From NCBI GenBank assembly GCA_045636425.1, contig JAZTXM010000003.1:4903-68902 (forward strand): 64,000 nucleotides of DNA, read 5' to 3'. The notes under the pieces were generated by a model, which saw only the letters and a list, made by a program, of their open reading frames with translations, made no database searches and had not been told where the DNA came from. Shown piece by piece: positions 4,987 through 61,305 of the stretch (its first letter is position 1; every line of letters begins with the position of its first letter). A program made the position numbers and the translations under genes. The DNA is from Clostridia bacterium (lineage in GTDB: Bacteria; Bacillota; Clostridia; UMGS1883).

Positions 4987-6039
4987 ATGAAAGCATATTT
5001 GACTTTGGAAAACGGAAAGGTTTTCTCGGGAGAAGCATTCGGTGCAATATGCGACGAGGTTGGAGAAATAGTATTTTCCACTTCTATGGGCAGTTACATT
5101 GAAGCACTTACAGACCCCTGCTATTACGGACAGATTCTTGTCCAGACATATCCGCTTATCGGTAACTACGGTATGATTTACTCCGATATGGAAAGCAGCA
5201 AGATTCACGCAAAGGGTTACATTGTGCGAGAAATTTGCGATACACCTTCAAACTTCCGCTCGGAGGGACTCTTGGAAGATTTCCTCAAAGAGCAGGGTGT
5301 TATGGGTATTTCGGGAATTGATACACGTGAAATCACAAAAATCATTCGCGAAGAAGGCACTATGACAGCACGCATCTCAACTAAAGAGCCTTCAGGCGAA
5401 AAGCCCCAGATGCCCGACATTAAAAACGCGGTTAAAGAAGTCAGTGCAAAGGAAAAACACACTGTAGGCGATGCAGATGTGAAAATTGCACTTCTCGACC
5501 TGGGAACAACTAAAAGTGCCGTTAAAACACTCGCAAATAAAGGTGCTATGGTAACAGTTCTTCCCTGTGACACAAAAGCGGACGAGTTTCTTTCCTACGA
5601 TGCGATTTATCTTTCCGATGGTCCGGGAAACCCCGAGGACTATAGTGAAATCGTAGAAGTAATAAAAGAAGTATTCGGCAAAAAGCCTATTTTTGCCACG
5701 GGACTTGGTCATCAGCTTCTTGCTATGGCAAACGGTGCAAAAATTCACAAGCTTCCTTATGGTCACCGCGGTGCAAATCAGCCTGTTAAGCAGCTTGAAA
5801 GCGGCAGAGTTTATATCACTGCACAAAACCACAGCTATGCAGTAGTTTCCGATACTCTCCCCTCTTACGCACAGGTAACTTATGAAAACCTTAACGACAA
5901 GAGCTGTGAGGGTATTGAGTACAAAGACAAAAATGCTGTTTCAATTCAATTCCGTCCCATAGAGGGAGACGGTCCTAACGAAACAGACTTCTTATACAGA
6001 AAATTCTTTGAAATGATTGGAGGAAGCAAGAATGCCTAA
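4987..6039 (+). CDS. carA: carbamoyl-phosphate synthase small-subunit homolog lacking the glutaminase catalytic triad
   Basis: 350 aa. The CarA N-domain (LTDPCYYGQILVQTYPLIGNYG) and GATase fold are retained. The nucleophile motif reads FATGLGHQ instead of FGICLGHQ, and HPE reads RPI. Overlaps carB by 8 nt. Confidence 0.85.
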   Translation: MKAYLTLENGKVFSGEAFGAICDEVGEIVFSTSMGSYIEALTDPCYYGQILVQTYPLIGNYGMIYSDMESSKIHAKGYIVREICDTPSNFRSEGLLEDFLKEQGVMGISGIDTREITKIIREEGTMTARISTKEPSGEKPQMPDIKNAVKEVSAKEKHTVGDADVKIALLDLGTTKSAVKTLANKGAMVTVLPCDTKADEFLSYDAIYLSDGPGNPEDYSEIVEVIKEVFGKKPIFATGLGHQLLAMANGAKIHKLPYGHRGANQPVKQLESGRVYITAQNHSYAVVSDTLPSYAQVTYENLNDKSCEGIEYKDKNAVSIQFRPIEGDGPNETDFLYRKFFEMIGGSKNA

Positions 6040-9000
6040 GAATAAAGACATCAAAAAGGTACTGGTAATCGGCTCGGGTCCTATTGTAATCGGGCAGGCT
6101 GCCGAATTTGACTATGCAGGTGCACAGGCTTGCCGAGTACTCCGCGATGAGGGCGTAAATATCGTCCTTGTAAACTCCAACCCCGCTACAATTATGACAG
6201 ATAAGGCTCTTGCAGATGAAATTTATCTTGAACCTCTTACAACAGATACAATCAAGAGAATCATTGAAAAGGAAAAGCCCGACAGTCTTCTTGCATCGCT
6301 TGGCGGACAGACAGGTCTTACCATTGCAATGCAGCTTGATAAGGAAGGCTATCTTGACAAAATGGGCGTTAAGCTTATCGGCACAAATGCCGAAGCTATC
6401 GACCGTGCAGAGGATAGAGAGCTTTTCAAGGAAACGATGCTCAAAATCGGGCAGGGTTGTATCCCCTCCGACATCGCTACAACAGTTGACGAATGTCTTA
6501 GCATTGCAGAAAAAATTGGCTACCCCGTAATTGTACGCCCTGCATTCACCCTTGGCGGTGCAGGTGGCGGCGTTGCGTATGACGCTGATACTCTTGCAAA
6601 GATTGCAAATAATGGTCTTACTCTTTCCCCCATTACTCAGGTGCTTATTGAAAAGTACATCTACGGATGGAAAGAAGTAGAATTTGAAGTTATGCGTGAC
6701 CACGCCGGTAACGCTATTACAATCTGTAGCATGGAAAATGTGGATCCCGTTGGCATCCACACCGGTGACAGTATAGTTGTTGCTCCCGCGGCAACTCTTT
6801 CCGATAAAGAATATTCAATGCTCAGAAAAGCGGCTCTTGATATTATCACAGAGCTTAAGATTGAGGGCGGATGTAACTGTCAGTTTGCACTTAATCCCGA
6901 CAGCTTTGAGTATGCGGTAATCGAGGTTAACCCCAGAGTTTCCCGTTCTTCCGCACTTGCAAGTAAGGCTACGGGTTACCCCATTGCAAAGGTTACCACA
7001 AAGATTGCCCTCGGCTATACGCTTGATGAAATCAAAAATGATGTTACTGGTGTAACATATGCTTGCTTTGAGCCTGCGGTTGACTACATGGTAGTTAAAT
7101 TCCCCAAATGGCCCTTTGACAAATTCGTATATGCCGACAGAAAGCTCGGCACACAGATGAAGGCTACGGGCGAGGTTATGTCTATCGGCAATTCCTTTGA
7201 ATCGGCACTTATGAAGGCGGTAAGAGGTGCAGAGCTTAAGACCGAAACTCTCCGCCATAAGGAAGTTCAAGCTATCGAGGATATTGAAAAGAAGCTTTAT
7301 GACCTTGACGACCTTAGAATTTTCACAGTTTATGAAGCTCTTGTAAGAGGAATTACTGTAGACAGAATCAACGAAATCACAAGAATTGATAAATGGTTCC
7401 TTTCCAAGATTAAAAATATTGTGGACTATGAAAAGAGCATTGTGGGCAATCTTACTCCCGAGCTTTACGAAAAAGGTAAGAAGCTTGGCTTTACCGATAA
7501 GATTCTGGAAGAAATCAGCGGTGAAAAAGTTCCCTGCCATAAAAATTGCGTTTACAAAATGGTTGATACCTGTGGCGGCGAATTTGCAGCTAAAACTCCC
7601 TACTTCTACTCCACTTATGACAATGAGTGCGAAGCAAGGGCCGTTGCTACAAACAACAAAAAGGTAATCGTTCTCGGCTCCGGTCCTATCAGAATCGGTC
7701 AGGGTATCGAATTTGACTACTCCTCCGTTCACTGTGTATGGGCACTTAAGGAAATGGGCTACGAGGTAATTATTATTAATAACAACCCCGAAACCGTTTC
7801 CACCGACTTTGATACAGCGGACAGGCTTTATTTTGAGCCTCTTACTCCCGAAGATGTAATGAACGTAATCGAGGTTGAAAAGCCCGAGGGCGTTGTGGTT
7901 GCATTCGGCGGTCAGACTGCAATCAAGCTGGTTAAATTCCTTGACGAAAGCGGAATTAAAATCTTAGGTACTTCTGCAAAGAGCATTGATATGGCAGAGG
8001 ATCGTGAGCAGTTTGATGCACTCCTTGAAAAGTTCAACATTAAGCGTCCCAGCGGTCTTACCGTTATGACACGCACTGAAGCACTCGAGGCGGCAGAAAA
8101 GCTTGGCTACCCCGTACTTCTGCGTCCCTCATACGTAATCGGCGGTCAGAATATGACGATTGCTTACAAGGAAGAAGACGTAGAACGCTATATGGATATC
8201 ATTCTTTCTCAGAAGATTGAAAACCCTGTACTTGTGGATAAGTATATGATGGGTAAGGAGCTTGAGGTTGACGTAATCAGCGACGGCAAAGACGTTCTTA
8301 TCCCCGGTATTATGGAGCACGTTGAACGTGCAGGTGTACACAGCGGTGACTCTATCGCAGTATATCCTCCCTTTAACGTGACGGATAAGATGCTTGATAA
8401 GATTGTTGACTGCTCAATAAAGCTTGCTCTTTCCCTTAAGACACAGGGACTTATAAATATTCAGTACCTTGTATATGAAAACGAACTGTATGTAATCGAG
8501 GTTAACCCCAGAGCATCAAGAACAGTTCCCTATATCAGTAAGGTAACGGGCATTCCTATGGTAGACCTTGCTACACAGGTTATGCAGGGTACTCCCCTTC
8601 TTGACCTTGGCTACGGCAGCGGTCTTTACAAGATGCCCCCCTACTATGCAGTTAAGGTTCCTGTGTTCTCATTTGAGAAGCTTTCGGGTATCAACTCTAT
8701 CTTAGGACCTGAAATGAAGTCCACAGGTGAAGTTTTGGGTATTGGTAAAACGCTTAACGAGGCACTTTACAAAGGTCTTGTTTCCGCAGGCTTCAATCTT
8801 GAAAGCCGTGGCGGAGTATATATCAGCGTTGACTCAAAGGATAAGTACGACCTTATTGAGCTTGCAAAGAAGCTTTACGATGCAGGTCTTGAAATCTACG
8901 CAGATGAAATGAATGCTCTCATTATAGATTCATTGGGTATCCCCGTGGAAACAGTTGAGGGAGAAAAGATTTATTCACTCCTTGAAAGCGAAAAGATTGG

Positions 9001-10036
9001 TTATATAATTCACACCAATTCAGGCAGACCTAAGGAAATTGAGAAGTTTATAAGACTGCACCGCAGAGCACTTCAGTTAAGCATTGCATGTCTTACATCG
9101 CTTGATACTGCAAATGCACTTGCAGATATTCTTCTCAGCCGATTCAATCAGTATAATACAGAGCTTACGGATATTGCTAAGCTCCGCACAGAAAAGCTGA
9201 ACATTCCCTTTATCAAAATGCAGGGAACCGGCGATGACTATATATTCATCAATAACTTTGATGGAAACATTGCATTCCCCGAAGCACTTGCAATTGTATT
9301 CTCCGACCGCCGCAGAGGTATCGGTGCAGACGGACTTGTTCTTATCGAAAAATCCGATGTGGCAGATGCGAAAATGCGTATATTCAACACTGACGGCAGT
9401 GAGGGCAAAATGGCAGGTAACGCTATCCGTTGCGTAGGTAAATACCTTTGGGATAACGGCTATGTAACACACCGCCATATAGCAATTGAAACTGCAAGCG
9501 GTATAAGAAAGCTTACGCTTCACCTCTTCGACCACAAGGTTACAAGCGTAACCGTCCAGATGGGACAGGCACAGTTTAATCCCGCTCAGATTCCCGTGGA
9601 TATGCCCGGAGATAAAGTAATTAACGAAAAGGTTACAATCGGCGGTAAGAAGTACGATATTACGTGCGTATCTATCGGAAATCCCCACTGTGTTGTTATC
9701 TGCGATAATGTATATAACATTGATGTGGAAACAATCGGTCCGAGGTTTGAAAATGCACCTATATTCCCCGAAAGAATCAATACGGAATTTGTTAAGATTA
9801 TCGACAAGCGTACCATCAGAATGAGAGTATGGGAACGCGGTAACGGTGAAACTCCCGCCTGCGGTACAGGTGCTTGTGCGGCGGCTATTGCGGCAGTTGA
9901 AAACGGCTACTGTGAGAAGGACACCGACATTTCCGTAAGAGTTGAGGGCGGAGAGCTTATCGTACGCTATACAGACGAGGGAGTATTCTTAACCGGTGAT
10001 GCGGAGAAGGTATTTGAGGGAATTTATCAGTATTAA
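6032..10036 (+). CDS. carB: carbamoyl-phosphate synthase large subunit fused in frame to a C-terminal DapF-like (diaminopimelate epimerase fold) domain
   Basis: Start ATG 6032 has GGAGG 9 nt upstream. About 1040 aa of CarB (two ATP-grasp halves plus an MGS-like domain), then a linker. From nt 9197 a DapF-like domain follows (KMQGTGDDYIFIN ... GNPHCVV ... ERGNGETPACGTGACAAA). No stop or SD lies between the two parts. Confidence 0.88.
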   Translation: MPKNKDIKKVLVIGSGPIVIGQAAEFDYAGAQACRVLRDEGVNIVLVNSNPATIMTDKALADEIYLEPLTTDTIKRIIEKEKPDSLLASLGGQTGLTIAMQLDKEGYLDKMGVKLIGTNAEAIDRAEDRELFKETMLKIGQGCIPSDIATTVDECLSIAEKIGYPVIVRPAFTLGGAGGGVAYDADTLAKIANNGLTLSPITQVLIEKYIYGWKEVEFEVMRDHAGNAITICSMENVDPVGIHTGDSIVVAPAATLSDKEYSMLRKAALDIITELKIEGGCNCQFALNPDSFEYAVIEVNPRVSRSSALASKATGYPIAKVTTKIALGYTLDEIKNDVTGVTYACFEPAVDYMVVKFPKWPFDKFVYADRKLGTQMKATGEVMSIGNSFESALMKAVRGAELKTETLRHKEVQAIEDIEKKLYDLDDLRIFTVYEALVRGITVDRINEITRIDKWFLSKIKNIVDYEKSIVGNLTPELYEKGKKLGFTDKILEEISGEKVPCHKNCVYKMVDTCGGEFAAKTPYFYSTYDNECEARAVATNNKKVIVLGSGPIRIGQGIEFDYSSVHCVWALKEMGYEVIIINNNPETVSTDFDTADRLYFEPLTPEDVMNVIEVEKPEGVVVAFGGQTAIKLVKFLDESGIKILGTSAKSIDMAEDREQFDALLEKFNIKRPSGLTVMTRTEALEAAEKLGYPVLLRPSYVIGGQNMTIAYKEEDVERYMDIILSQKIENPVLVDKYMMGKELEVDVISDGKDVLIPGIMEHVERAGVHSGDSIAVYPPFNVTDKMLDKIVDCSIKLALSLKTQGLINIQYLVYENELYVIEVNPRASRTVPYISKVTGIPMVDLATQVMQGTPLLDLGYGSGLYKMPPYYAVKVPVFSFEKLSGINSILGPEMKSTGEVLGIGKTLNEALYKGLVSAGFNLESRGGVYISVDSKDKYDLIELAKKLYDAGLEIYADEMNALIIDSLGIPVETVEGEKIYSLLESEKIGYIIHTNSGRPKEIEKFIRLHRRALQLSIACLTSLDTANALADILLSRFNQYNTELTDIAKLRTEKLNIPFIKMQGTGDDYIFINNFDGNIAFPEALAIVFSDRRRGIGADGLVLIEKSDVADAKMRIFNTDGSEGKMAGNAIRCVGKYLWDNGYVTHRHIAIETASGIRKLTLHLFDHKVTSVTVQMGQAQFNPAQIPVDMPGDKVINEKVTIGGKKYDITCVSIGNPHCVVICDNVYNIDVETIGPRFENAPIFPERINTEFVKIIDKRTIRMRVWERGNGETPACGTGACAAAIAAVENGYCEKDTDISVRVEGGELIVRYTDEGVFLTGDAEKVFEGIYQY

Positions 10037-10040
10037 AAGC

Positions 10041-10268
10041 GGGATGTTAAAAATGCCCAGACCATTCGTTGGCGATTGATTATATTTTGAAAGAGCGTAT
10101 TTCTTTTAAAGATATGCTTATCGGTTGAAATCCGTACAACGGATTTCTGTTTTAGATGCCAACGAATTACGAACAAACTTCACCTCTCGCTGTATACACA
10201 TACAGCTTCGGGTAACCTGCGGCAAGCCGCAGTTCAGTTTGTCCGTTCTGAACATTTTTTCCTATCCC
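10041..10268 (+). repeat. structured interspersed element, copy 2
   Basis: Same arms and 3' domain as copy 1, but a different cassette. Inner helix 10064-10073/10158-10167. Begins 4 nt after the carB stop. Confidence 0.85.
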
Positions 10269-10295
10269 TTTGACGCCTAATTATTAGTTTGAAAA

Positions 10296-10381
10296 TGAAT
10301 ATTGGTGCATAAAATATAAATTTATGCACCAATATTCAAAATTTATGAATTTTTATGCAAAAACGCTTGCATAATTATACA
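10296..10381 (+). promoter_or_regulatory. candidate ArgR operator region (ARG-box-like sites)
   Basis: Two boxes, TGAATTTTTATGCA (10346-10359) and TGCATAATTATACA (10368-10381), are 22 bp apart centre to centre. An 18-bp perfect inverted repeat TGAATATTGGTGCATAAA / TTTATGCACCAATATTCA lies at 10296-10313/10321-10338. Confidence 0.45.
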
Positions 10382-10395
10382 TTTAATGTTATACT
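10367..10395 (+). promoter_or_regulatory. sigma-A type promoter of argG
   Basis: TTGCAT (10367-10372), 17-nt spacer, TGtTATACT extended -10 (10390-10395). The -35 overlaps ARG-box-like site 2. Confidence 0.5.
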
Positions 10396-10437
10396 GTTTT
10401 CATTGAAAGAATGAAAAGAAAAAAGGAGATTTTAAAA

Positions 10438-11658
10438 ATGGATAAGAAGGATATTAAAAAAGTAGTTCTCGCTTACAGCGGAGGACTTGACACATCAATC
10501 ATTATTCCGTGGCTTAAGGAAAACTACAACAACTGTGAGGTTATCGCCGTTGCAGGTAATGTAGGACAGAATGACGAGCTTGAAGGTCTTGAAGAAAAGG
10601 CTATAAAGACAGGGGCTTCCAAGCTTTACGTTCTTGACCTTACAGAGGAATATGTAGATGAATACATCATCCCCACTATGAAAGCAGGTGCAATTTACGA
10701 GGAATATCTTCTCGGAACAAGCCATGCTCGTCCCTGTATTGCAAAGGGTCTTGTAGATATTGCAATCAAGGAAAATGCAGATGCTATCTGCCATGGTTGC
10801 ACAGGTAAGGGTAACGACCAGGTGCGTTTTGAGCTTACAATAAAGCACTTTGCTCCTAATATGCCCATTATTGCCCCCTGGCGTATTTGGGATATTAAAT
10901 CCCGTGAAGAGGAAATTGAATATGCAGAGGCACACAATGTTCCTCTTAAGATTAACCGCGAAACAAACTACTCAAAGGATAAGAACCTCTGGCATCTTTC
11001 TCACGAGGGTCTTGACCTTGAAGATACAGGCAACGAGCCTCAGTACGAAAAGCCGGGCTTCCTTGAAATGGGCGTATCTCCCATCATGGCACCCGATGAG
11101 CCTACATATATCACTCTTGACTTTGAGCAGGGCATTCCTGTAGCATTCAATGACAAGAAGATGAGTGCAAAGGAAATCATTCTTGCCCTTAATGAAGTTG
11201 GCGGAAAGAATGGTATCGGACTTCTCGACATCGTTGAAAATCGTCTTGTAGGTATGAAATGCCGCGGCGTTTACGAAACTCCCGGCGGTGCAATCCTTTA
11301 CAAGGCACACAGCGTTCTTGAATCCATCTGCCTTGACAAGATGACACTTCACGAAAAGCAGAAGCTTTCTATCACATTTGCAGAGCTTGTTTATAACGGT
11401 CAGTGGTTTACTCCTCTCCGTGAGGCTCTCAGTGCATTTGTTGATAAGACTCAGGAAAAGGTTACAGGTAAGGTACGCCTTAAGCTTTACAAGGGTAATA
11501 TGATTAATGCAGGCGTATGGAGCGATTACAGCCTTTATTCAGAAGAAATCGCAACCTTTGGCGAAAGCGATTACAACCAGAAGGATTCCGAAGGCTTCAT
11601 TAACCTTTACGGTCTTCCCATTGCAGTACAGGCTATGGTTGATGCAAAGAATAAATAA
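10438..11658 (+). CDS. argG: argininosuccinate synthase
   Basis: [10 protein letters not shown]-type ATP-PPase motif. Start ATG 10438 has AAGGAG 8 nt upstream. The ORF-track start at 10411 lacks an SD. Confidence 0.92.
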
Positions 11659-11659
11659 C

Positions 11660-11900
11660 GGACGTATTAAAATAGCACTGAACGCATAAAGCATGAAGGC
11701 TCATATCATGGCAATTAGAAAGCGTAGATATTTGAGTTTAATCCCGTTTGTCGGGAAAAAATTCGCTCCACGAATTTTATTGACTTATCTGCTTTATGCT
11801 ACGAACAAACTTCACCTCTCGCTGTATACACATACAGCTTCGGGTAACCCACGGCAAGCCGTGGTTCAGTTTGTCCGTTCCGCACTATTTTACTACATCC
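11660..11900 (+). repeat. structured interspersed element, copy 3 (diverged arms)
   Basis: Arms GGACGTATTAAAATAGCACTGAAC / GTTCCGCACTATTTTACTACATCC still pair. Inner helix 11684-11693/11790-11799. The 3' domain is conserved. Begins 1 nt after the argG stop. Confidence 0.8.
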
Positions 11901-11904
11901 TCAC

Positions 11905-11951
11905 AAAAAAGTATGAAACTGTAGTAAAGAAATTTACTACAGTTTCATACT
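11905..11951 (-). terminator. 19-bp perfect hairpin; intrinsic-terminator-like only when read on the minus strand
   Basis: AGTATGAAACTGTAGTAAA-GAAA-TTTACTACAGTTTCATACT (11910-11951). An A-run lies at 11905-11910 on the + strand, which is a U-run after the stem on the - strand. No T-run follows on the + strand. Confidence 0.4.
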
Positions 11952-11974
11952 TAACAGACAATGGAGGTAAAAAT

Positions 11975-13345
11975 ATGGACAAGATGTGGGCAGGGCGTTT
12001 TTCAAAAGCCCTGGATAAAGAAGCTGATGATTTTAATTCATCCATACATTTTGACTGCAAAATGTACAGGCAGGATATAGAGGGCTCTATTGCCCATGCG
12101 ACTATGCTTGCCGAATGTAACATTATTTCCAAAAGCGACAGTGAAACAATAATTGCAGGACTTAAAGAAATTCTTGCTGACCTTGAGGGCGGAGCACTCG
12201 GCTTTGACTTTGATGCGGAAGATATACATATGTTTGTGGAGGCCGAGCTTACACGCCGTATTGGAGATGTGGGAAAAAGGCTTCATACCGCAAGAAGCCG
12301 TAACGACCAGGTGGCCTTAGATATCCGCCTTTACATGCGTGACGAGGCAAATGAGGTTATTTCCCTTATCCGGAAGCTTCTTGGTGCTATTCTTCTTCAG
12401 GCAGAAGCTAACAAGGAAACAATTCTCCCCGGCTACACGCATCTTCAGCGTGCACAGCCCATTATGTTTGCACATCATCTTTGTGCATATGCAATGATGT
12501 TTATCCGCGATATCGGAAGAATCGAGGACGCACTTAAGAGAATGAACCTCTCCCCCTTAGGCTCATGTGCCCTTGCGGGAACAACCTATGAAACAAACCG
12601 CGAAAGGACGGCAGAGCTTCTTGGCTTTGACGGAATTACCTTAAACAGCATCGACGGCGTTTCCGACCGTGACTTCTGCGTTGAGCTGATGAGTGCATTC
12701 GCACTTGTGATGACGCATCTTTCAAGATTCTCCGAGGAGGTTATTCTCTGGTCATCATGGGAATTCAAATTCGTGGAGCTTGACGATTCCTATACAACAG
12801 GCTCCTCCATTATGCCCCAGAAGAAGAATCCCGATATGGCAGAGCTTGTACGCGGTAAGACGGGCAGAGTATATGGCGATTTGATTGCAATGCTGACAAT
12901 ACTAAAGGGTATTCCCCTGGCATACAACAAGGATATGCAGGAGGATAAGGAAGCAATCTTTGACAGCGTGGAAACAGTTAAAAAGTGCCTCAGCATTTTT
13001 GCTCCCATGATTGCTACCATGTCTGTGCGTGCGGACAAAATGTACGCCGCAGCAGGTGAAGGCTTTATCAATGCCACAGACCTTGCCGACTATCTTGTAA
13101 AGAAAGGGCAGCCCTTCCGCAGTGCGTATAAGACAGTAGGGCAGATTGTGGGAAAGTGCGTCGCGGAAAAGAAAACTCTTGAAACGCTTACCCTCCCCGA
13201 ATATAAGGAATTTGATGAGCTTTTTGAGGAAGATTTATATGCAGAAATCGACCTTAAAAACTGCGTGGAAAAACGTATTTCCGCAGGTGGAACTTCTGTA
13301 GCATCAATTAATACACAGATTGAATATATAAAAAAATTTGTATAA
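11975..13345 (+). CDS. argH: argininosuccinate lyase
   Basis: MDKMWAGRFSK... is a typical ArgH N-terminus. GGAGGT SD at 11963-11968. 456 aa. The ORF-track start at 11693 reads through repeat copy 3. Confidence 0.92.
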   Translation: MDKMWAGRFSKALDKEADDFNSSIHFDCKMYRQDIEGSIAHATMLAECNIISKSDSETIIAGLKEILADLEGGALGFDFDAEDIHMFVEAELTRRIGDVGKRLHTARSRNDQVALDIRLYMRDEANEVISLIRKLLGAILLQAEANKETILPGYTHLQRAQPIMFAHHLCAYAMMFIRDIGRIEDALKRMNLSPLGSCALAGTTYETNRERTAELLGFDGITLNSIDGVSDRDFCVELMSAFALVMTHLSRFSEEVILWSSWEFKFVELDDSYTTGSSIMPQKKNPDMAELVRGKTGRVYGDLIAMLTILKGIPLAYNKDMQEDKEAIFDSVETVKKCLSIFAPMIATMSVRADKMYAAAGEGFINATDLADYLVKKGQPFRSAYKTVGQIVGKCVAEKKTLETLTLPEYKEFDELFEEDLYAEIDLKNCVEKRISAGGTSVASINTQIEYIKKFV

Positions 13346-22927: not shown

Positions 22928-22977
22928 AAAAAAAATACTGTAGAATGCTTAAATTTGAGCATTTTACAGTATTTTTT
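22928..22977 (+). terminator. rho-independent terminator after ftsK
   Basis: AAAAATACTGTAGAATGCT-8 nt-AGCATTTTACAGTATTTTTT. Confidence 0.75.
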
Positions 22978-26637: not shown

Positions 26638-26675
26638 AAAAAAGAAATTCGTGTTCTCCACGAATTTCTTTTTTT
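26638..26675. terminator. bidirectional terminator after the rnf-CPBP operon
   Basis: AAAAAAGAAATTCGTG-ttctc-CACGAATTTCTTTTTTT. Confidence 0.8.
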
Positions 26676-35707: not shown

Positions 35708-36658
35708 CTAAAAAAAGATTCCGCTTCCGTCAAAATCTGGAATAAAGCTTTCTAAGGAGGCTTCTCCTTCTTGAATATACGCGTCTTCAATACCCAAGTT
35801 TATGCAAAAATCTATTATATTATCATATTCTTTATCAGACAGTTTTCTCTCTAAATTGTCAAACCCGCATTTTGTCACGGGAGTATACTGACTCATTATG
35901 CTAAGCACTATGTTGTCTTTATATTTTTCAAACACTTGTCTTATAACCTTTTTTGAATCCTCCGTATGCCCAGGCAGACACAAGTGCCTCACAATAACTC
36001 CTCTTTGTATAATGCCGCTTTCATCAAAAACCACTTCGGGCTTATACTGCACCATTTTTCCCAAGGCTTTCCACGCAACAACCGGATAATCCTCCGCCAA
36101 AGAGTAGAGCTTTGAAAGCCTACCATCCTCATATTTAAAATCCACTAAATACACATCTATTACATCCTTTAAAATCTCAAGTGTATTAAGCGATACATAT
36201 CCGCTGCTGTTCAGGATAACAGGAATCTTAAGCCCCCTTTTTTTCGCTTCTGTTATTGTATATTTAACGGTAGGTGCGTAATGCTCGGCAGTAACCAAAT
36301 TGATATTATGTGCTCCTTCGCCCTGTAACCTAAGGAATATTTTCACAAGCTGCTGCTCATCGACTATAGTGCCTTTGTTACCGCGGCTCAACCCATAATT
36401 TTGGCAATAACAGCACCTTAGAGTGCACCCTGAAAAGAAAACCGTTCCCGAACCGTTTGTTCCCGATATGCACGGTTCCTCCCAAAAATGCAAGGCTGCT
36501 CTGCCAATCTTAGGCATTGCGGTTTCTTTGCAAAAGCCTGTTTCCTTATATCTGTTTACTTTGCATTTTCTTGGACACAACTGACATTTCTCATATAATG
36601 AGTTCAGCACAAAACCACCTGCATTTTCATTAAAACAAAAGGGGATGTAAAAAATCAT
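35708..36658 (-). CDS. radical SAM protein (PflX-like activase family)
   Basis: CTLRCCYCQN is a CxxxCxxC motif. The start is uncertain: ATG 36658 lies inside a terminator-like hairpin, and GTG 36610 (VLNSLYEKCQLCPRKC) is the alternative. Confidence 0.75.
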   Translation of the reverse strand: MIFYIPFCFNENAGGFVLNSLYEKCQLCPRKCKVNRYKETGFCKETAMPKIGRAALHFWEEPCISGTNGSGTVFFSGCTLRCCYCQNYGLSRGNKGTIVDEQQLVKIFLRLQGEGAHNINLVTAEHYAPTVKYTITEAKKRGLKIPVILNSSGYVSLNTLEILKDVIDVYLVDFKYEDGRLSKLYSLAEDYPVVAWKALGKMVQYKPEVVFDESGIIQRGVIVRHLCLPGHTEDSKKVIRQVFEKYKDNIVLSIMSQYTPVTKCGFDNLERKLSDKEYDNIIDFCINLGIEDAYIQEGEASLESFIPDFDGSGIFF

Positions 36659-36669
36659 TTTTTACCCCC
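36641..36669. terminator. bidirectional terminator-like hairpin whose arms match the termini of the interspersed element
   Basis: GGGGATGTAAAAAATCATTTTTTACCCCC, flanked by AAAA and TTTTT. The first 14 nt are identical to the left end of element copy 4. Confidence 0.55.
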
Positions 36670-37408: not shown

Positions 37409-38323
37409 CTACTTTTTATTTTTATTTGAGGTAGCCGTGCCTTGAGAACTTTTATTTGAATAACCATAGCCGTAGCCATAGCCGTAGCCGCCGTAGCCGT
37501 ATCCGCCGTAGCCGCCGTAGCCGTAGTTTCCGTAACCGCTTCTGTAATACTTCATTTTCCTTCCATATCGATAATATCCATGTTTGCCGTAACGATATCC
37601 CACCTTAATATCAGAGAGTCTTCCGTTCAGCACAAATCCGATAACATTTGCATCAACAAAAGAAAGCTTTTTAATTGCTTCTGAAACAGATTCCTTGTCT
37701 GTTCTTCCCTGCCTTACAACGAGGAGTATGCCATCAACCATATTTGACATAACAGCCGCATCGGTTACAATATTAATCGGAGAAGTATCCAGGAATATAT
37801 ATTCGTATATTTCAGACAGCTTATCAAGAGTATCGCTCATATTACTGCTTCCCAAAAGCTCAGCAGGATTGGGAGGCATGTCTCCCGACGGGATAACGTC
37901 TAAGTTTGCATACTCTGAATGGACAATTACTGAGTCAACAGTATTAAGATTAGCCAAAACATTGGAAAGACCCGGAGTAGAAGAAATGTTAAGCAGGTTT
38001 GCCACGTTTGGTTTTCTGAGGTCACAGTCTATAACCAGTACCTTTGCCCCTGTCTGTGCAAAAGATATTGCAAGATTAAGGCAATTTGTACTCTTACCCT
38101 CTCCTGCAAGCGCACTTGTCACAATTATTTTTTTTGCTCCCTCTCGGGGGATTGTAAACACCACATTTGTTCTGAGGGCTTTGTAAGCTTCCTTAACATG
38201 GAATGAACTTTTATCATTAAGCACCTTTGCTCTTTTTACCACTAAGGGGCTTCCCGCACTCAAACCGCCGTTTTTAGTAAACTTTAAAGAAAATTTCCTT
38301 AATCCGGATACGAAATTTGCCAT
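37409..38323 (-). CDS. cpsD: BY-kinase (CpsD/YwqD-type tyrosine autokinase) with an expanded Gly-Tyr tail
   Basis: Walker A SALAGEGKST, then VIDCDLRKP and LDTSP. The C-terminus carries 18 Tyr in about 65 residues. Confidence 0.85.
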   Translation of the reverse strand: MANFVSGLRKFSLKFTKNGGLSAGSPLVVKRAKVLNDKSSFHVKEAYKALRTNVVFTIPREGAKKIIVTSALAGEGKSTNCLNLAISFAQTGAKVLVIDCDLRKPNVANLLNISSTPGLSNVLANLNTVDSVIVHSEYANLDVIPSGDMPPNPAELLGSSNMSDTLDKLSEIYEYIFLDTSPINIVTDAAVMSNMVDGILLVVRQGRTDKESVSEAIKKLSFVDANVIGFVLNGRLSDIKVGYRYGKHGYYRYGRKMKYYRSGYGNYGYGGYGGYGYGGYGYGYGYGYSNKSSQGTATSNKNKK

Positions 38324-39293: not shown

Positions 39294-39764
39294 TCAGCCA
39301 TTCTTTTCATATTCTGAATCAATATTTGTCGCATCATGGGTATATGCCTCCACTGCCATGGCATCACATATTTCATTATACTTATTTCCGGCATGTCCTT
39401 TAACCCATATAAAACTGACACGATGAATTTTTATAAGTTCAAGCAACATTTCCCACAAATCCCTGTTTAGAACCGCCTTTTTGTCAGATTTTCTCCAGCC
39501 GTTTTTAATCCAGGAATCAAGCCAGTGCTGATTAATTGCATCCGTAAGATACTTAGAATCACTGTAAAGATCCACGTCGCATTTTTCCTTGAGAAGCCTC
39601 AGCGACTCAATAGCTGCCATAAGCTCCATTCTGTTGTTTGTGGTTTTTCTGTACCCGCGGCTTATCTGCTTTTCGCTGCCGTTGTATATAAGAACAGCAC
39701 CGAACCCGCCTTTTCCCGGATTGCCAGTGCAGGCTCCATCGGTGTAGATTTCAACTTTTTTCAA
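39294..39764 (-). CDS. rnhA: ribonuclease HI
   Basis: [21 protein letters not shown] motif. I prefer TTG 39764, which lies 8 nt after GGGAG, over TTG 39779. Confidence 0.85.
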
Positions 39765-39833
39765 AATAACAACTCCCAAAAGGGGGACTGCAGCATAATG
39801 TTATGCTACAGTCCCTCTCTATTTAATACACTC

Positions 39834-40784: not shown

Positions 40785-40853
40785 TTTCTACACCTCTATA
40801 TGTATATTTTTAATTATAAATTCAACACCTATTATTTACTGCTTATTATGTAT

Positions 40854-41033
40854 CCCCGCAGTGCCGTTTATTTCGGACTATTCTAAACCTGCCAAAGCAG
40901 GTGGGTGACTCGCTCACCGCTCCTGGGTTTCCCTCTGGCATAGCAAGGGCTTACACGCCACGGCAAGACATTCGGTCTCCCTATATAGATGTGTTGGTTA
41001 AAATAAATCCGTAATTGCGCACACCGCAGGGGG
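40854..41033 (-). ncRNA. candidate structured 5' leader / cis-regulatory RNA of the SLH gene (class unknown)
   Basis: On the minus strand the closing helix is CCCC..GCGGUG / CACUGC-GGGG. A second long-range helix GGAUUUAUUUUAACC / GGUUUAGAAUAGUCC and internal hairpins follow. It lies between a promoter and the SD. Confidence 0.4.
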
Positions 41034-41048
41034 ATTGCTCATGTTTTA

Positions 41049-41767: not shown

Positions 41768-41825
41768 ATTAATTCACCATAAGTTATTATAACAGATAGT
41801 TTTTTCATTTGCAAGATATTTATAC

Positions 41826-41868
41826 AAAAAGGGCGGTGTAAAAAAACCGAGTTTTTTTACACCGCCTC
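41826..41868 (-). terminator. rho-independent terminator
   Basis: GGGCGGTGTAAAAAAA-ccgag-TTTTTTTACACCGCC, with a U-run on the minus strand. Confidence 0.8.
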
Positions 41869-45061: not shown

Positions 45062-46177
45062 GTGAAAAAGTCTAATATTTTTTCCGATAAAATTGATATA
45101 GTTTTACTGGTGAGTGTGATTCTCGCTTCCGTTTTCGGTATTCTGATTATTAACAGTGCCACATATGCTCTTGATACACATTTGAAATATGTGGCGGTGC
45201 AAAGCATCGCCCTCATTCTGGGAATCGGTGCAATGACGCTTACCATATTTTTTAGTTACAAATATATAGAAAAGCTACGCTATCTTATTTTTCTATTGGG
45301 AATAGGGATGCTGATTTTAGTTCTTGCAATGGGTAAGCTTTCCAACGGAACGCAGGGCTGGCTGGTATTGGGGCCTGTAACGCTTCAGCCCTCGGAAATT
45401 GCCAAGGTGTGCTTTATTATAACCTTTTCAACCCACCTTGCAAAAAAGCATGAATCGGTTAACAAGCGAAAAACGCTTTTGGGACTGCTTTTACATTTGC
45501 TCTGCTATATGATTCCCGTACTGCTTCAGCCCGACTTTGGTACGGCAACGGTTTTTGCGGTAATATTTGCATTTGAGCTGTTTTTTGCAGGCATATATAA
45601 AAAATATATTGCAGGGGTATTTGCGTTAGGTGCTTTAGCTTCCCCCGTGATATGGTTTTTCCTGAAGGATTATCAAAGAAGCAGAATTATAACTCTGTTC
45701 TTCCCCGAAAGCGACCCTTTGGGCGGAGGCTACCATGTGCTGCAATCGAAGCTTGCCATAGGAAGCGGTATGATTACAGGCAGGGGCTATCTCCAGGGAC
45801 CGCAGACACAGTCGGGATTTCTTCCCGAAAAGCAAACCGACTTTGCTTTTTCCGTTTTGGGAGAGGAATTGGGGCTTATAGGTGCAATTTTCATCACTGC
45901 ATTACTGCTGATTATAGTTTACCGCTGTTTTGACAACGCTAAAAGCTGTTCCCACGACCCCTTCGGTGAATTCATTTGTATCGGCGTCGGCTCGATGATG
46001 TTTTTCCACATAGTGGAAAACATCGGAATGTGCCTTGGTATTCTTCCTATCACGGGAATTCCGCTTCCCTTTATAAGCTACGGCGGAAGTAATCTTGTGA
46101 CCTGCTTTATCGCTATCGGACTTGTTCAGAATGTACGTATGCGAAGGCGGGCAACTAAATTTGATTTTATGGAATAG
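45062..46177 (+). CDS. FtsW/RodA/SpoVE-family peptidoglycan glycosyltransferase
   Basis: GTG start. Polytopic SEDS protein with QPSEIAK and LPEKQTDFAFS motifs. Confidence 0.88.
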   Translation: MKKSNIFSDKIDIVLLVSVILASVFGILIINSATYALDTHLKYVAVQSIALILGIGAMTLTIFFSYKYIEKLRYLIFLLGIGMLILVLAMGKLSNGTQGWLVLGPVTLQPSEIAKVCFIITFSTHLAKKHESVNKRKTLLGLLLHLLCYMIPVLLQPDFGTATVFAVIFAFELFFAGIYKKYIAGVFALGALASPVIWFFLKDYQRSRIITLFFPESDPLGGGYHVLQSKLAIGSGMITGRGYLQGPQTQSGFLPEKQTDFAFSVLGEELGLIGAIFITALLLIIVYRCFDNAKSCSHDPFGEFICIGVGSMMFFHIVENIGMCLGILPITGIPLPFISYGGSNLVTCFIAIGLVQNVRMRRRATKFDFME

Positions 46178-46185
46178 ACGTAAAA

Positions 46186-46438
46186 GGGGATGTAAAAAAA
46201 GTCCAGACCACAAAAAGGCGATAATAATACGGATTATAGGCAGTTGGTGCTTGCCAAAACATGTTAATTTGGTTAAAAATCTCATTTTATTCGATTTTTT
46301 CTTTTTTTGAAGCCTTTTTGTTACGAACAAACTTCGCCACTCGACGTACCCACGTACGCCTTCGGGTAACCTAACAATGCCCAAGCGTGGGCATTGTTAG
46401 CTCAGTTTGTCCGTTCTGAAGCATTTTTTCCTATCCCC
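46186..46438 (+). repeat. structured interspersed element, copy 4
   Basis: Arms GGGGATGTAAAAAAAGTCCAGACC / GTTCTGAAGCATTTTTTCCTATCCCC. Inner helix 46210-46219/46312-46321. Both 3'-domain hairpins are compensated. Begins 8 nt after the SEDS gene stop. Confidence 0.85.
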
Positions 46439-46440
46439 TT

Positions 46441-46480
46441 AAAAGAGGGTGAAAAAATCGTTGATTTTTTCACCCTCTTG
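46441..46480. terminator. bidirectional terminator (SEDS gene / ABC operon)
   Basis: AAAAGAGGGTGAAAAAATC-gtt-GATTTTTTCACCCTCTT. Confidence 0.85.
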
Positions 46481-60594: not shown

Positions 60595-61236
60595 TTAATA
60601 CAGTTTAGCTTCACTAAAGGGCCAGAATCTTACCTTGGCTTTTCCAAGCACATCGTCAGTGCTTACAGGACCTATTACACGGCTGTCACTGCTATGATTG
60701 CGGTTATCGCCCATTACGAAAATACATCCCTTGGGAACTTCTATATCGGTATATATAAAGCCCTGGCTGTACATCATTGGGTCACCGCTTTTATCATCAT
60801 TAATATACGGCTCGTCAATTTTTACGCCGTCTACATATAATTCGTTTCTGTCAAAATCTATTCTGACATGCTGACCTTCGGTTGCAATCACTCGCTTAAT
60901 CCAGTACCTGTCATCGGTAGCCCTGGACTTAAATACAATTATATCTCCTGCCTCGGGCTCATATCCTAATCTCCACACTACCATTCTGTCATTATGCTTA
61001 AGCGTAGACTCCATGGACTGCCCGTCCACACGGACAACCGTAAACACAAAATTACGGATAAGGATTGCTAAAATCGCCGCTATCGCTATTGCCTGAATCC
61101 ACTCCAGAATTTCTCTCATCATTCCTTTTTTAGCAGGCTTTTCTGTTTCCTGCTCCTCTACCTCACGAATTACTTCCTCTGAATTTACCTTTTCATTTTC
61201 ATTATTTTCCCCTACGGGGTAATTATTCTGCTCCAC
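60595..61236 (-). CDS. lepB: signal peptidase I
   Basis: GQSMESTL Ser motif, the KRVIA Lys motif and GDNRNHSSDSR. GTG start 6 nt after GGAGGG. Confidence 0.88.
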   Translation of the reverse strand: MEQNNYPVGENNENEKVNSEEVIREVEEQETEKPAKKGMMREILEWIQAIAIAAILAILIRNFVFTVVRVDGQSMESTLKHNDRMVVWRLGYEPEAGDIIVFKSRATDDRYWIKRVIATEGQHVRIDFDRNELYVDGVKIDEPYINDDKSGDPMMYSQGFIYTDIEVPKGCIFVMGDNRNHSSDSRVIGPVSTDDVLGKAKVRFWPFSEAKLY

Positions 61237-61305
61237 GAATTTCCCTCCTTAAAACTGAAAAAGAAAAAGAAGCCTGCCTTGTGACAGACTTCCTTCTTTT
61301 GACTA

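Follow-up and report, generated by a model that had tools for sequence, protein, structure and literature searches.

A widespread structured repeat family of gut and rumen Clostridia

Four copies of a three-way-junction element in one contig

In a 64-kb stretch of contig JAZTXM010000003.1 from a Clostridia bacterium, referred to here as the window, an element of roughly 230 to 255 nt occurs in four copies, all of which adopt the same three-way-junction fold as single strands. Copy 2 (10040-10268; nhmmer E 1.3e-44) lies between the stop codon of a carB-dapF fusion (10034-10036) and the argG promoter region. Copy 1 (1670-1902) is flanked by the argJ stop codon TGA (1665-1667) and by argB, copy 3 (11660-11900) by the argG stop codon TAA (11656-11658) and by argH, and copy 4 (46186-46438) by the rodA stop codon TAG (46175-46177) and a convergent ABC-transporter gene. 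All four are assigned to the minus strand, which is the strand taken to fold, and a full-length profile search of the 64 kb revealed no fifth full copy. The open reading frame (ORF) abutted by copy 2 (6017-10036, plus strand, 1339 aa) encodes the large subunit of carbamoyl-phosphate synthase and carries two C-terminal DapF (diaminopimelate epimerase) domains at residues ~1100-1332, and is therefore an apparent CarB-DapF fusion.

Read along the plus strand, each window copy is composed of five parts: a 24-nt left arm, a segment of 104-116 nt with a perfect 10-bp inverted pair at its ends, one T residue, a conserved domain that begins ACGAACAAACUUC and finishes UCAGUUUGUCCGU, and a right arm complementary to the left. 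In copy 2 these correspond to the left arm at 10040-10063, the P2 arm at 10064-10167 (minus strand; closing helix ATTCGTTGGC/GCCAACGAAT), the junction T at 10168, the P3 domain at 10169-10246 and the right arm at 10247-10268. Copy 1 has its left arm at 1670-1693, P2 at 1694-1806 (ACAAAGGACA/TGTCCTTTGT), the P3 domain at 1808-1880 and the right arm at 1881-1902. The left arm of copy 3 is diverged (11660-11683) and is followed by P2 at 11684-11799 (GCATAAAGCA/TGCTTTATGC), the P3 domain at 11801-11878 and the right arm at 11879-11900; in copy 4 the same parts occupy 46186-46209, 46210-46321 (ACAAAAAGGC/GCCTTTTTGT), 46323-46414 and 46415-46438. In the folded element the two arms form a long closing helix, P1, with about 22 nt paired and an internal loop inside, the outer portion of which resembles the stem of an intrinsic terminator in having a G/C-rich base followed by an A/U run. 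The base of the P2 arm is the 10-bp helix, and the P3 arm bears two small hairpins. An additional helix, 'P3c', which would join the base after CUUC to the base after CGGG, was discarded because its columns lack significant covariation.

The four perfect 10-bp pairs had been noticed in an earlier note made from the letters alone, and all of them exist, three exactly where that note placed them; in copy 1 the 3′ strand TGTCCTTTGT lies at 1797-1806 rather than at 1798-1807. The left arms of copies 1 and 2 are indeed identical over 24 of 24 nt (CGGGATGTTAAAAATGCCCAGACC). The 3′ domains of these copies, described in the note as nearly identical, are similar to a lesser degree, as the 3′ domain and 3′ arm together match at 90 of 107 positions, with the differences confined to the two small hairpins. 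The segments enclosed by the P2 helix, which the note regarded as unrelated cassettes, do show only ~53-58% aligned identity among the window copies (~53% for copies 1 and 2), but they share a design, in that every interior contains a variable hairpin, then a hairpin of the form GAAAUYCG-loop-CGRAUUUC, and then a U-rich stretch. In copy 2, the variable hairpin is accompanied by hairpin P2b (10127-10147; GAAATCCG-TACAA-CGGATTTC) and then by TGTTTT on the plus strand. The interior is mostly folded into such hairpins, with little single-stranded display. Elsewhere in the window, a solo bidirectional terminator hairpin at 26646-26668 (GAAATTCGTG-TTCTC-CACGAATTTC, with A and T runs on either side), picked up by the full-length profile, is like the P2b of most cassettes, and a weaker look-alike occurs at 61221-61253.

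Distribution of the family and covariation of its helices

A pattern scan of one genome per species yielded at least 118 stretches bearing the element, most of them from metagenome-assembled genomes (MAGs), which were viewed as 8-kb tiles around the matches. With the exception of one stray, all carriers are Clostridia, nearly all gut or rumen MAGs plus one isolate, and they include Acutalibacteraceae, Oscillospiraceae and Congzhengia. A profile search for the right domain identified 143 copies within these genome stretches, and an independent pattern recovered 35 stretches from metagenomes, some of them of the human gut. In a viral collection the element was present on only three IMG/VR contigs (L127, L128 and L129), all holding the same copy with identical scores. 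Comparison of the region 9900-12100 with Rfam 15 on both strands at E<=10 returned chance matches only, none of them on the element core, and literature searches uncovered no description of such an element. No conserved ORF starts on the folded strand from the Shine-Dalgarno-like motif GAGAGGUGA. The element represents a widespread, multi-copy, previously uncatalogued structured repeat family of gut and rumen Clostridia. The scan pattern fixed 22 bases of P3, and P3 conservation in the genome sample is consequently imposed in part; the metagenome sample corrects for this in P3 only.

In a set of 128 copies, drawn from other genomes as well as the window, the 10 nt next to the conserved TACGAAC motif have a partner segment with 10 of 10 pairs in 68 and with 9 of 10 pairs in 42, and the P2 closing helix is thus far beyond chance. 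Both RNAalifold and explicit pair counts (79-85 copies) showed that each of the ten P2 pairs has undergone compensatory double changes, seen in 2-47 sequences per pair, and double changes likewise occur in P1, P3, P3a and P3b. When 79 sequences were aligned in the orientation of the minus strand, 95.9% of the cells were paired, with double changes in 27 of the 41 pairs (459 cells); none of 500 shuffles scored as high, and slid controls were 33-44% paired. All helices are maintained by compensatory substitutions, and this strong covariation signal belongs to no Rfam family, which makes the element of interest for RNA discovery.

The earlier note had also recommended testing whether the cassettes fall into discrete types. 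The P2 helix sequences instead form a graded series (GCAAAAAGGC, ACAAAAAGGC, GCACAAGGCA, ACACAAGGCA, GCATAAAGCA, GCATAAAACA, GTATAAAACC, GTTTATTGGC, GTTCATTGGC and ATTCGTTGGC), the kind of gradual divergence that the note itself had set against its proposal. Its suggestion that different hairpins had been captured independently by one scaffold likewise fails, as P2 is a homologous arm of conserved design in every copy. Across the family the P2 interior keeps this common design despite its high variability; it has been reduced to a plain hairpin in three copies (L053, L040 and L076), and the longest cassette reaches 386 nt and is non-coding (L065). These observations bear on the possibility that the P2 interior is a guide or specificity module, swapped between copies to address different nucleic-acid targets. 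Scaffold and P2 do reassort within genomes and the interiors are highly variable, as this would predict. Yet the interior is dispensable in the plain-hairpin copies, is folded rather than shown as a single strand, and belongs to helix types that grade into one another. Moreover, the complementary targets that the note recommended looking for were not found: in the 64-kb window nothing matches the cassette interiors better than chance, and the whole element, represented by copy 2 as the only copy compared, has no match in phage and plasmid collections. A programmable cassette is thus extremely unlikely. In keeping with this, the features that mark guide-RNA systems such as CRISPR, omega RNA and bridge RNA are absent here, there being no matches beyond chance, no nearby effector and a variable part that can be dispensed with.

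The folded strand and the surrounding terminators

We use S to denote the minus strand of the window, the antisense strand of the gene that ends next to the element. The same 41 pairs that are 95.9% paired on S are 89.6% paired on the plus strand, the difference residing in inner P1 (89.3% versus 74.1%), P3 (99.9% versus 89.8%) and P3a (97.5% versus 92.1%), with P2 equal on both. On the plus strand, A.C greatly outnumbers G.T in inner P1 (113:28), in P3a (33:0) and at P3 position 1 (10:1), and one inner-P1 column contains C.A in 44 copies, U-A in 30, C-G in 13 and U.G in 3. Because an A.C or C.A mismatch on the plus strand is a G.U or U.G pair on the minus strand, these counts indicate that the structure is selected on the minus strand. 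One A.C in P3 was imposed by the search pattern; 12 additional genome-locus copies found without this constraint either keep A.C or have a Watson-Crick pair. At P3 position 3, the 20 distinct metagenome helices from a scan anchored elsewhere have A.C in 12, A-T in 5 and G-C in 2, and the metagenome helices overall contain 16 A.C against 4 G.T. The minus strand gives the better fold in 92 of 96 elements, with a mean gain of 10.5 kcal/mol (for copy 2, z -7.96 on the minus strand and -6.65 on the plus strand). GNA, GNRA and CUUG account for the P3b loops of at least 28 copies on S, whereas none of these is seen on the plus strand. The strand selected for folding is probably S.

One possibility is a retron-like template, with P2 being copied into single-stranded DNA by a reverse transcriptase whose gene lies elsewhere. 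Retron non-coding RNAs have the layout a1 - msr - msd - a2, and the order on S of closing inverted repeats, a P3 hairpin domain and a long P2 stem mirrors it; the shared closing helix, conserved hairpin domain and long stem with a free interior amount to a resemblance. In addition, P2 is nearly all Watson-Crick on both strands, with ~1% G.U, whereas P1, P3 and P3a are rich in G.U, a pattern that would be expected if both an RNA and its DNA copy had to pair. However, no reverse transcriptase gene adjoins any copy, the flanking genes are housekeeping genes, and retrons are not known to occur as dozens of dispersed orphan copies in one genome. We consider this explanation very unlikely.

The ORF that precedes the element runs in the direction of the plus strand in 74 of 86 cases, and the distance from its stop codon to P2 clusters at 22-34 nt, such that the left arm starts 1-4 nt past the stop codon in most copies. 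At about seven loci the upstream ORF ends within the left arm, using a TAA or TGA located there. In L001, L007, L012, L033, L040, L085, L090 and L095 the upstream ORF stops well inside the left arm, with 10-18 nt between stop and P2. Where a stop inside the arm is used, the element has altered the C terminus or the stop codon of the host gene. Convergent genes make up 59 of the 90 downstream neighbours. Replication direction was considered as a cause of this orientation and rejected, as S does not follow the surrounding genes (211 versus 184 ORFs); the orientation of S tracks only the abutted gene.

A second recurrent neighbour lies on the far side of the element, where a hairpin of at least 10 bp is present within a few nucleotides after the element (plus strand) in 66 of 96 copies, usually as a symmetric A-run/stem/T-run terminator. 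The 5′ half of this terminator, T, matches the element's own left arm without interruption over at least 9 nt in 20 of 60 cases, as compared with 7% for the arms of other subfamilies. Read on S, the layout thus comprises a terminator hairpin, its U-tract, the element, and a U-rich stretch in which the abutted stop codon is contained as its reverse complement, with at least four U in 8 nt 3′ of P1 in 50 of 73 copies. Beside copy 4, T is a bidirectional intrinsic terminator at 46443-46479 (AAGAGGGTGAAAAAATC-GTT-GATTTTTTCACCCTCTT, then GTTTTATT), the 5′ half of which resembles the left arm GGGGATGTAAAAAAAG. The idea that T is an internal-deletion derivative of the element was rejected, as the two halves of T are perfectly complementary and the 3′ half is without the CCU bulge present in the right arm. 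Beside copy 3, a 20-bp hairpin at 11909-11952 has its U-tract on the minus strand, and its stem contains CTGTAGTAAA, like the copy 3 arm. Between copy 2 and the argG promoter lies a perfect 17-bp hairpin (10296-10336; GAATATTGGTGCATAAA...TTTATGCACCAATATTC) with a U-tract on the minus strand; no minus-strand gene is located upstream for it to terminate.

Some terminators of the window resemble the outer closing helix but have no body. The solo hairpin at 36634-36666 (GGGGATGTAAAAAA-TCA-TTTTTTACCCCC) is identical in sequence to the element's outer closing helix, and further solo terminator hairpins occur at ~41790-41830, ~39745-39781 and ~22930-22971, with stems beginning GGCGGTGTAAAAAAAC, GGGACTGTAGCATAA and ACTGTAGAATGC, respectively. 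Their stems share with the closing helix a design of G-rich base, TGTA and A-run. Since outer P1 has the sequence design of these terminators, P1 looks like a terminator stem with a 190-nt body in its loop, and the solo hairpins could be targets, relics or relatives of the element.

The element might be a host non-coding RNA family expressed from S, that is, a structured RNA of ~240 nt with its own P1 plus U-tract terminator, lying antisense at the end of a convergent gene, where it could serve as a back-up terminator or insulator against convergent read-through or as a protein-binding RNA, its copy number changing by duplication and loss. The selection of structure on S, the RNA-type GNRA, CUUG and GNA loops, an outer P1 built as a terminator stem with a U-rich stretch after it on S, and conservation of the structure over many genera are all consistent with this proposal, as is the presence in the window of solo hairpins that share this stem and are predicted to act as ordinary terminators. 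On the other hand, the gap between the preceding terminator and P1 is just 5-10 nt and contains no promoter, and a 190-nt body would be superfluous for termination. The element is also patchily present in congeneric species, and its truncated, tandem and mosaic copies, together with subfamilies that differ at a single orthologous site, are typical of selfish repeats. A host RNA on S therefore seems somewhat unlikely to us.

Alternatively, the element could act in the messenger RNA of the plus strand, as a 3′ untranslated region or intra-operon spacer that stabilises the message, or as a switch coupled to translation. In the switch version, the right arm would pair either with the left arm, forming P1 and allowing T to form, or with the left-arm-like 5′ half of T, in which case transcription would read through. 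The left arm would be opened by a ribosome that reaches the stop codon 1-4 nt ahead of it, and read-through would thereby depend on translation. There is no doubt that the plus strand is part of the upstream gene's transcript, given the co-orientation and close abutment described above, and the four-strand a/a′/a/a′ order, with the 5′ half of T tracking its own arm, is the classic layout of an attenuator. Plus-strand folds of the window copies are stable (z -5.4 to -6.7), CUUCGG is conserved on this strand, and P2b with its U-run resembles a plus-strand terminator. However, the frequent A.C and C.A mismatches in P1, P3 and P3a make the plus fold systematically poorer than the S fold. In the many copies whose next gene is convergent there is nothing downstream to regulate, many copies have no T or one of unrelated sequence, and close relatives lack the element at the same operon junctions. 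The likeness to riboswitch and attenuator platforms, in which one strand has two alternative partners and the 5′ half of the terminator mimics the 5′ strand of the closing helix, extends to an alternative arm/terminator pairing that can be drawn on paper. It is offset by a better-folding strand that is antisense to the transcribed gene, by the usual lack of a downstream gene and by dispensability at orthologous sites. We judge a plus-strand function to be unlikely.

The niche just beyond a terminator recalls group IIC introns, which target Rho-independent terminators and lie just 3′ of the terminator hairpin on the sense strand (PMC4748821). This is the closest analogue of the niche seen here on S, where the 5′ end of the element has such a hairpin within a few nucleotides in the 66 of 96 copies noted above. 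Group IIC introns are likewise structured RNAs, and their ORF-less copies rely on trans factors, but the element is far too small, and about one-third of its copies are without an adjacent terminator. Searches of the element gave no match to Intron_gpII or D1-D4 at E<=10 and no GUGYG or domain V; its 5′ end on S reads GGGGAUAGG. One could nevertheless envisage a terminator-seeking mobile element, a small structured RNA or its single-stranded DNA copy and neither a group I nor a group II intron, that would insert immediately 3′ of Rho-independent terminators and in which the arms would pair with the terminator stem and thereby constitute the 'programmable' part. Such pairing would account for the frequency with which an arm is copied in the adjacent terminator. 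In a variant of this scheme, dispersed orphan retron-like templates would be served by a single reverse transcriptase. A terminator-seeking copy of this kind would be an unlikely outcome in our estimation.

Gain and loss, mosaic copies and a proposed mode of spread

Orthologous loci were compared, as the earlier note had recommended. In relatives L013, L119 and L131, argG is 85-87% identical to that of the window at the nucleotide level; the argG/argH spacer carries the element in L013 and in the window and is a 74-nt spacer without it in L119 and L131. Across L119, L131 and L120-L126, a set that extends to more distant relatives, argG/argH spacers without the element measure 12-96 nt. At the site after carB, the element is absent from L013 and L119 and is present with a different P2 type in L081. 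A strain with a 98%-identical RodA has a 40-nt spacer containing a plain unrelated terminator, with rearranged flanks, and L018 and L087 hold different subfamilies at the same orthologous site. Presence at orthologous sites is therefore patchy, with different P2 types or subfamilies at the same positions. The view that a cassette is merely pre-existing local sequence was rejected, given that the empty spacer of L119, the sole one read, contains no cassette-like sequence by eye. The L119 spacer between carB and argG (L119:478-535), which corresponds to the site of copy 2 in the window, holds a different long hairpin repeat, GGGGAC(A/G)GGG...CCCGTCCCC, which recurs in L007 downstream of its element, and the same intergenic sites thus seem to gather several hairpin repeat families.

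Rearranged copies are common in the family. Head-to-tail arrays of at least two elements with a period of 196-260 nt occur at L003:7600-8000, L054:4320-4580, L055:3270-3590, L059:4740-5040 and L039:4480-4840. In seven loci (L078, L114, L030, L049, L034, L107 and L096) a full copy is followed by a second left arm and the start of a cassette, and L045 has an internal deletion. Across genomes, the sequence of the arms follows the P2 type (identity 0.78-0.80 for the same type, 0.61-0.64 for different types), whereas the inner P3 domain goes with the genome, as illustrated by three copies in MAG JAZUPX that are 98-100% identical there despite having different arms and P2. The earlier argument that point-mutation drift alone would be insufficient is borne out by this true mosaic, in which scaffold parts identical within a genome stand beside different P2 helices. 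The simplest explanation is exchange between resident copies, and parts have likely been exchanged by recombination or gene conversion. Of the modular exchange envisaged in the note, this portion appears to stand, while the notion of a swappable, programmable module finds no support. The more modest outcome is that the pattern of a cassette in a constant scaffold reflects compensatory evolution together with repeat recombination, with no sign of a programmable system.

Taken together, we give an even chance to the proposal that the family is a non-autonomous, structure-dependent repeat element of unknown mobiliser, lodged between stop codon and terminator, selected through an S-strand intermediate and shuffled in its parts by recombination. 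According to this model, the element would spread or be copied via a folded S-strand intermediate, either a terminator read-through RNA or single-stranded DNA, with the copying performed by an enzyme encoded elsewhere. It would lodge just downstream, on S, of Rho-independent terminators, which may offer a safe niche. If only structurally intact lineages propagate, the differences between subfamilies, including those at all ten P2 pairs, would be compensatory. Recombination between resident copies would then shuffle arms, P2 and inner P3, yielding a constant scaffold with different cassettes, and the P2 interior would be free to vary or to be lost, with no sign of a guide role.

Several observations weigh against this proposal. 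Neither 30 ORFs compared in the window, all of which are ordinary cellular genes, nor the recurrent neighbours at the at least 118 loci include a transposase, reverse transcriptase or other candidate mobiliser beside any copy; the largest recurrent neighbour cluster comprises 12 unannotated proteins in 12 loci, and no family is found in more than 12 of 118 loci. Target-site duplication was not detected beyond A-richness, the identity of the flanks being no better than that of shuffled pairs, in a comparison that is weak owing to imprecise ends. No clean pair of empty and filled sites is close enough to reveal an insertion event. No convincing promoter adjoins the element on S, and because a terminator also precedes its S-strand 5′ end, the source of an S-strand RNA is doubtful. 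P2 and P2b show no preference for S, or lean slightly toward the plus strand (24 G.T versus 10 A.C in one count, 7:9 in another), and the plus strand conserves the classic RNA loop motif CUUCGG. Finally, long-term conservation of the structure across bacterial families fits a host function equally well. Related searches were also negative: among the 118 loci there is no autonomous long version with an ORF between the arms or in P2, whole genomes not having been searched; no RAYT gene lies in the 8-kb tiles around the matches, no genome-wide search having been made; and neither an exact ArgG look-up nor a metagenome scan with species-specific 24-mers found empty and filled alleles within one species.

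The proposal of a mobile, structure-dependent repeat can be set beside known families of small repeats. The REP, BIME and REPIN elements of proteobacteria, mobilised by RAYT, an IS200-like Y1 transposase, are likewise multi-copy, non-coding and extragenic, and are located after gene ends and between convergent genes; they also fold as single strands with compensatory changes in their hairpins, occur as singlets, doublets and arrays, and depend on a mobiliser encoded elsewhere. REPs, however, are simple imperfect palindromes of 20-40 nt, whereas the element is ~240 nt long with a three-way junction and five covarying helices, resides in Clostridia and abuts the stop codon tightly. It also lacks the combination of a GTAG-type tetranucleotide and short palindrome, and some of its arms contain CTGTAG. 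Pneumococcal BOX, RUP and SPRITE, the Correia elements of Neisseria and bcr1 of B. cereus, compared here by features and not by sequence, are similarly intergenic, 100-300 nt long and complementary at their inverted termini. BOX is modular with a variable middle, and MITE-like repeats are transcribed with their neighbours and occur as internal deletions and mosaics, as here. In contrast to such repeats, the element has covarying local hairpins, which DNA cut-and-paste does not need, and an asymmetry between single strands; it shares their terminal inverted repeats, with neither a target-site duplication nor a related autonomous element apparent.

If the proposed mobile repeat is real, uncultured Clostridia of gut and rumen harbour a large family of structured repeats that has gone uncatalogued and has an anatomy unlike that of REPs or classical MITEs, and its relation to terminators would hint at targeting based on structure or pairing. 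Annotation would also be affected, as the elements lengthen ORFs, provide stop codons and place terminator-like hairpins within operons such as the arginine cluster of the window.

Two further features of the window were recorded. A 6S RNA (SsrS) at 40849-41035 on the minus strand (89.3 bits) is the sole Rfam match in the window at gathering score. At 37481-37537, tandem repeats of the GCCGTAGCC type, with periods of 9 and 15, lie within a gene on the minus strand whose product contains P-loop and ParA-like domains and which has a Wzz-family gene beside it; these repeats presumably encode a Tyr/Gly-rich C-terminal tail of the type found in BY-kinases.

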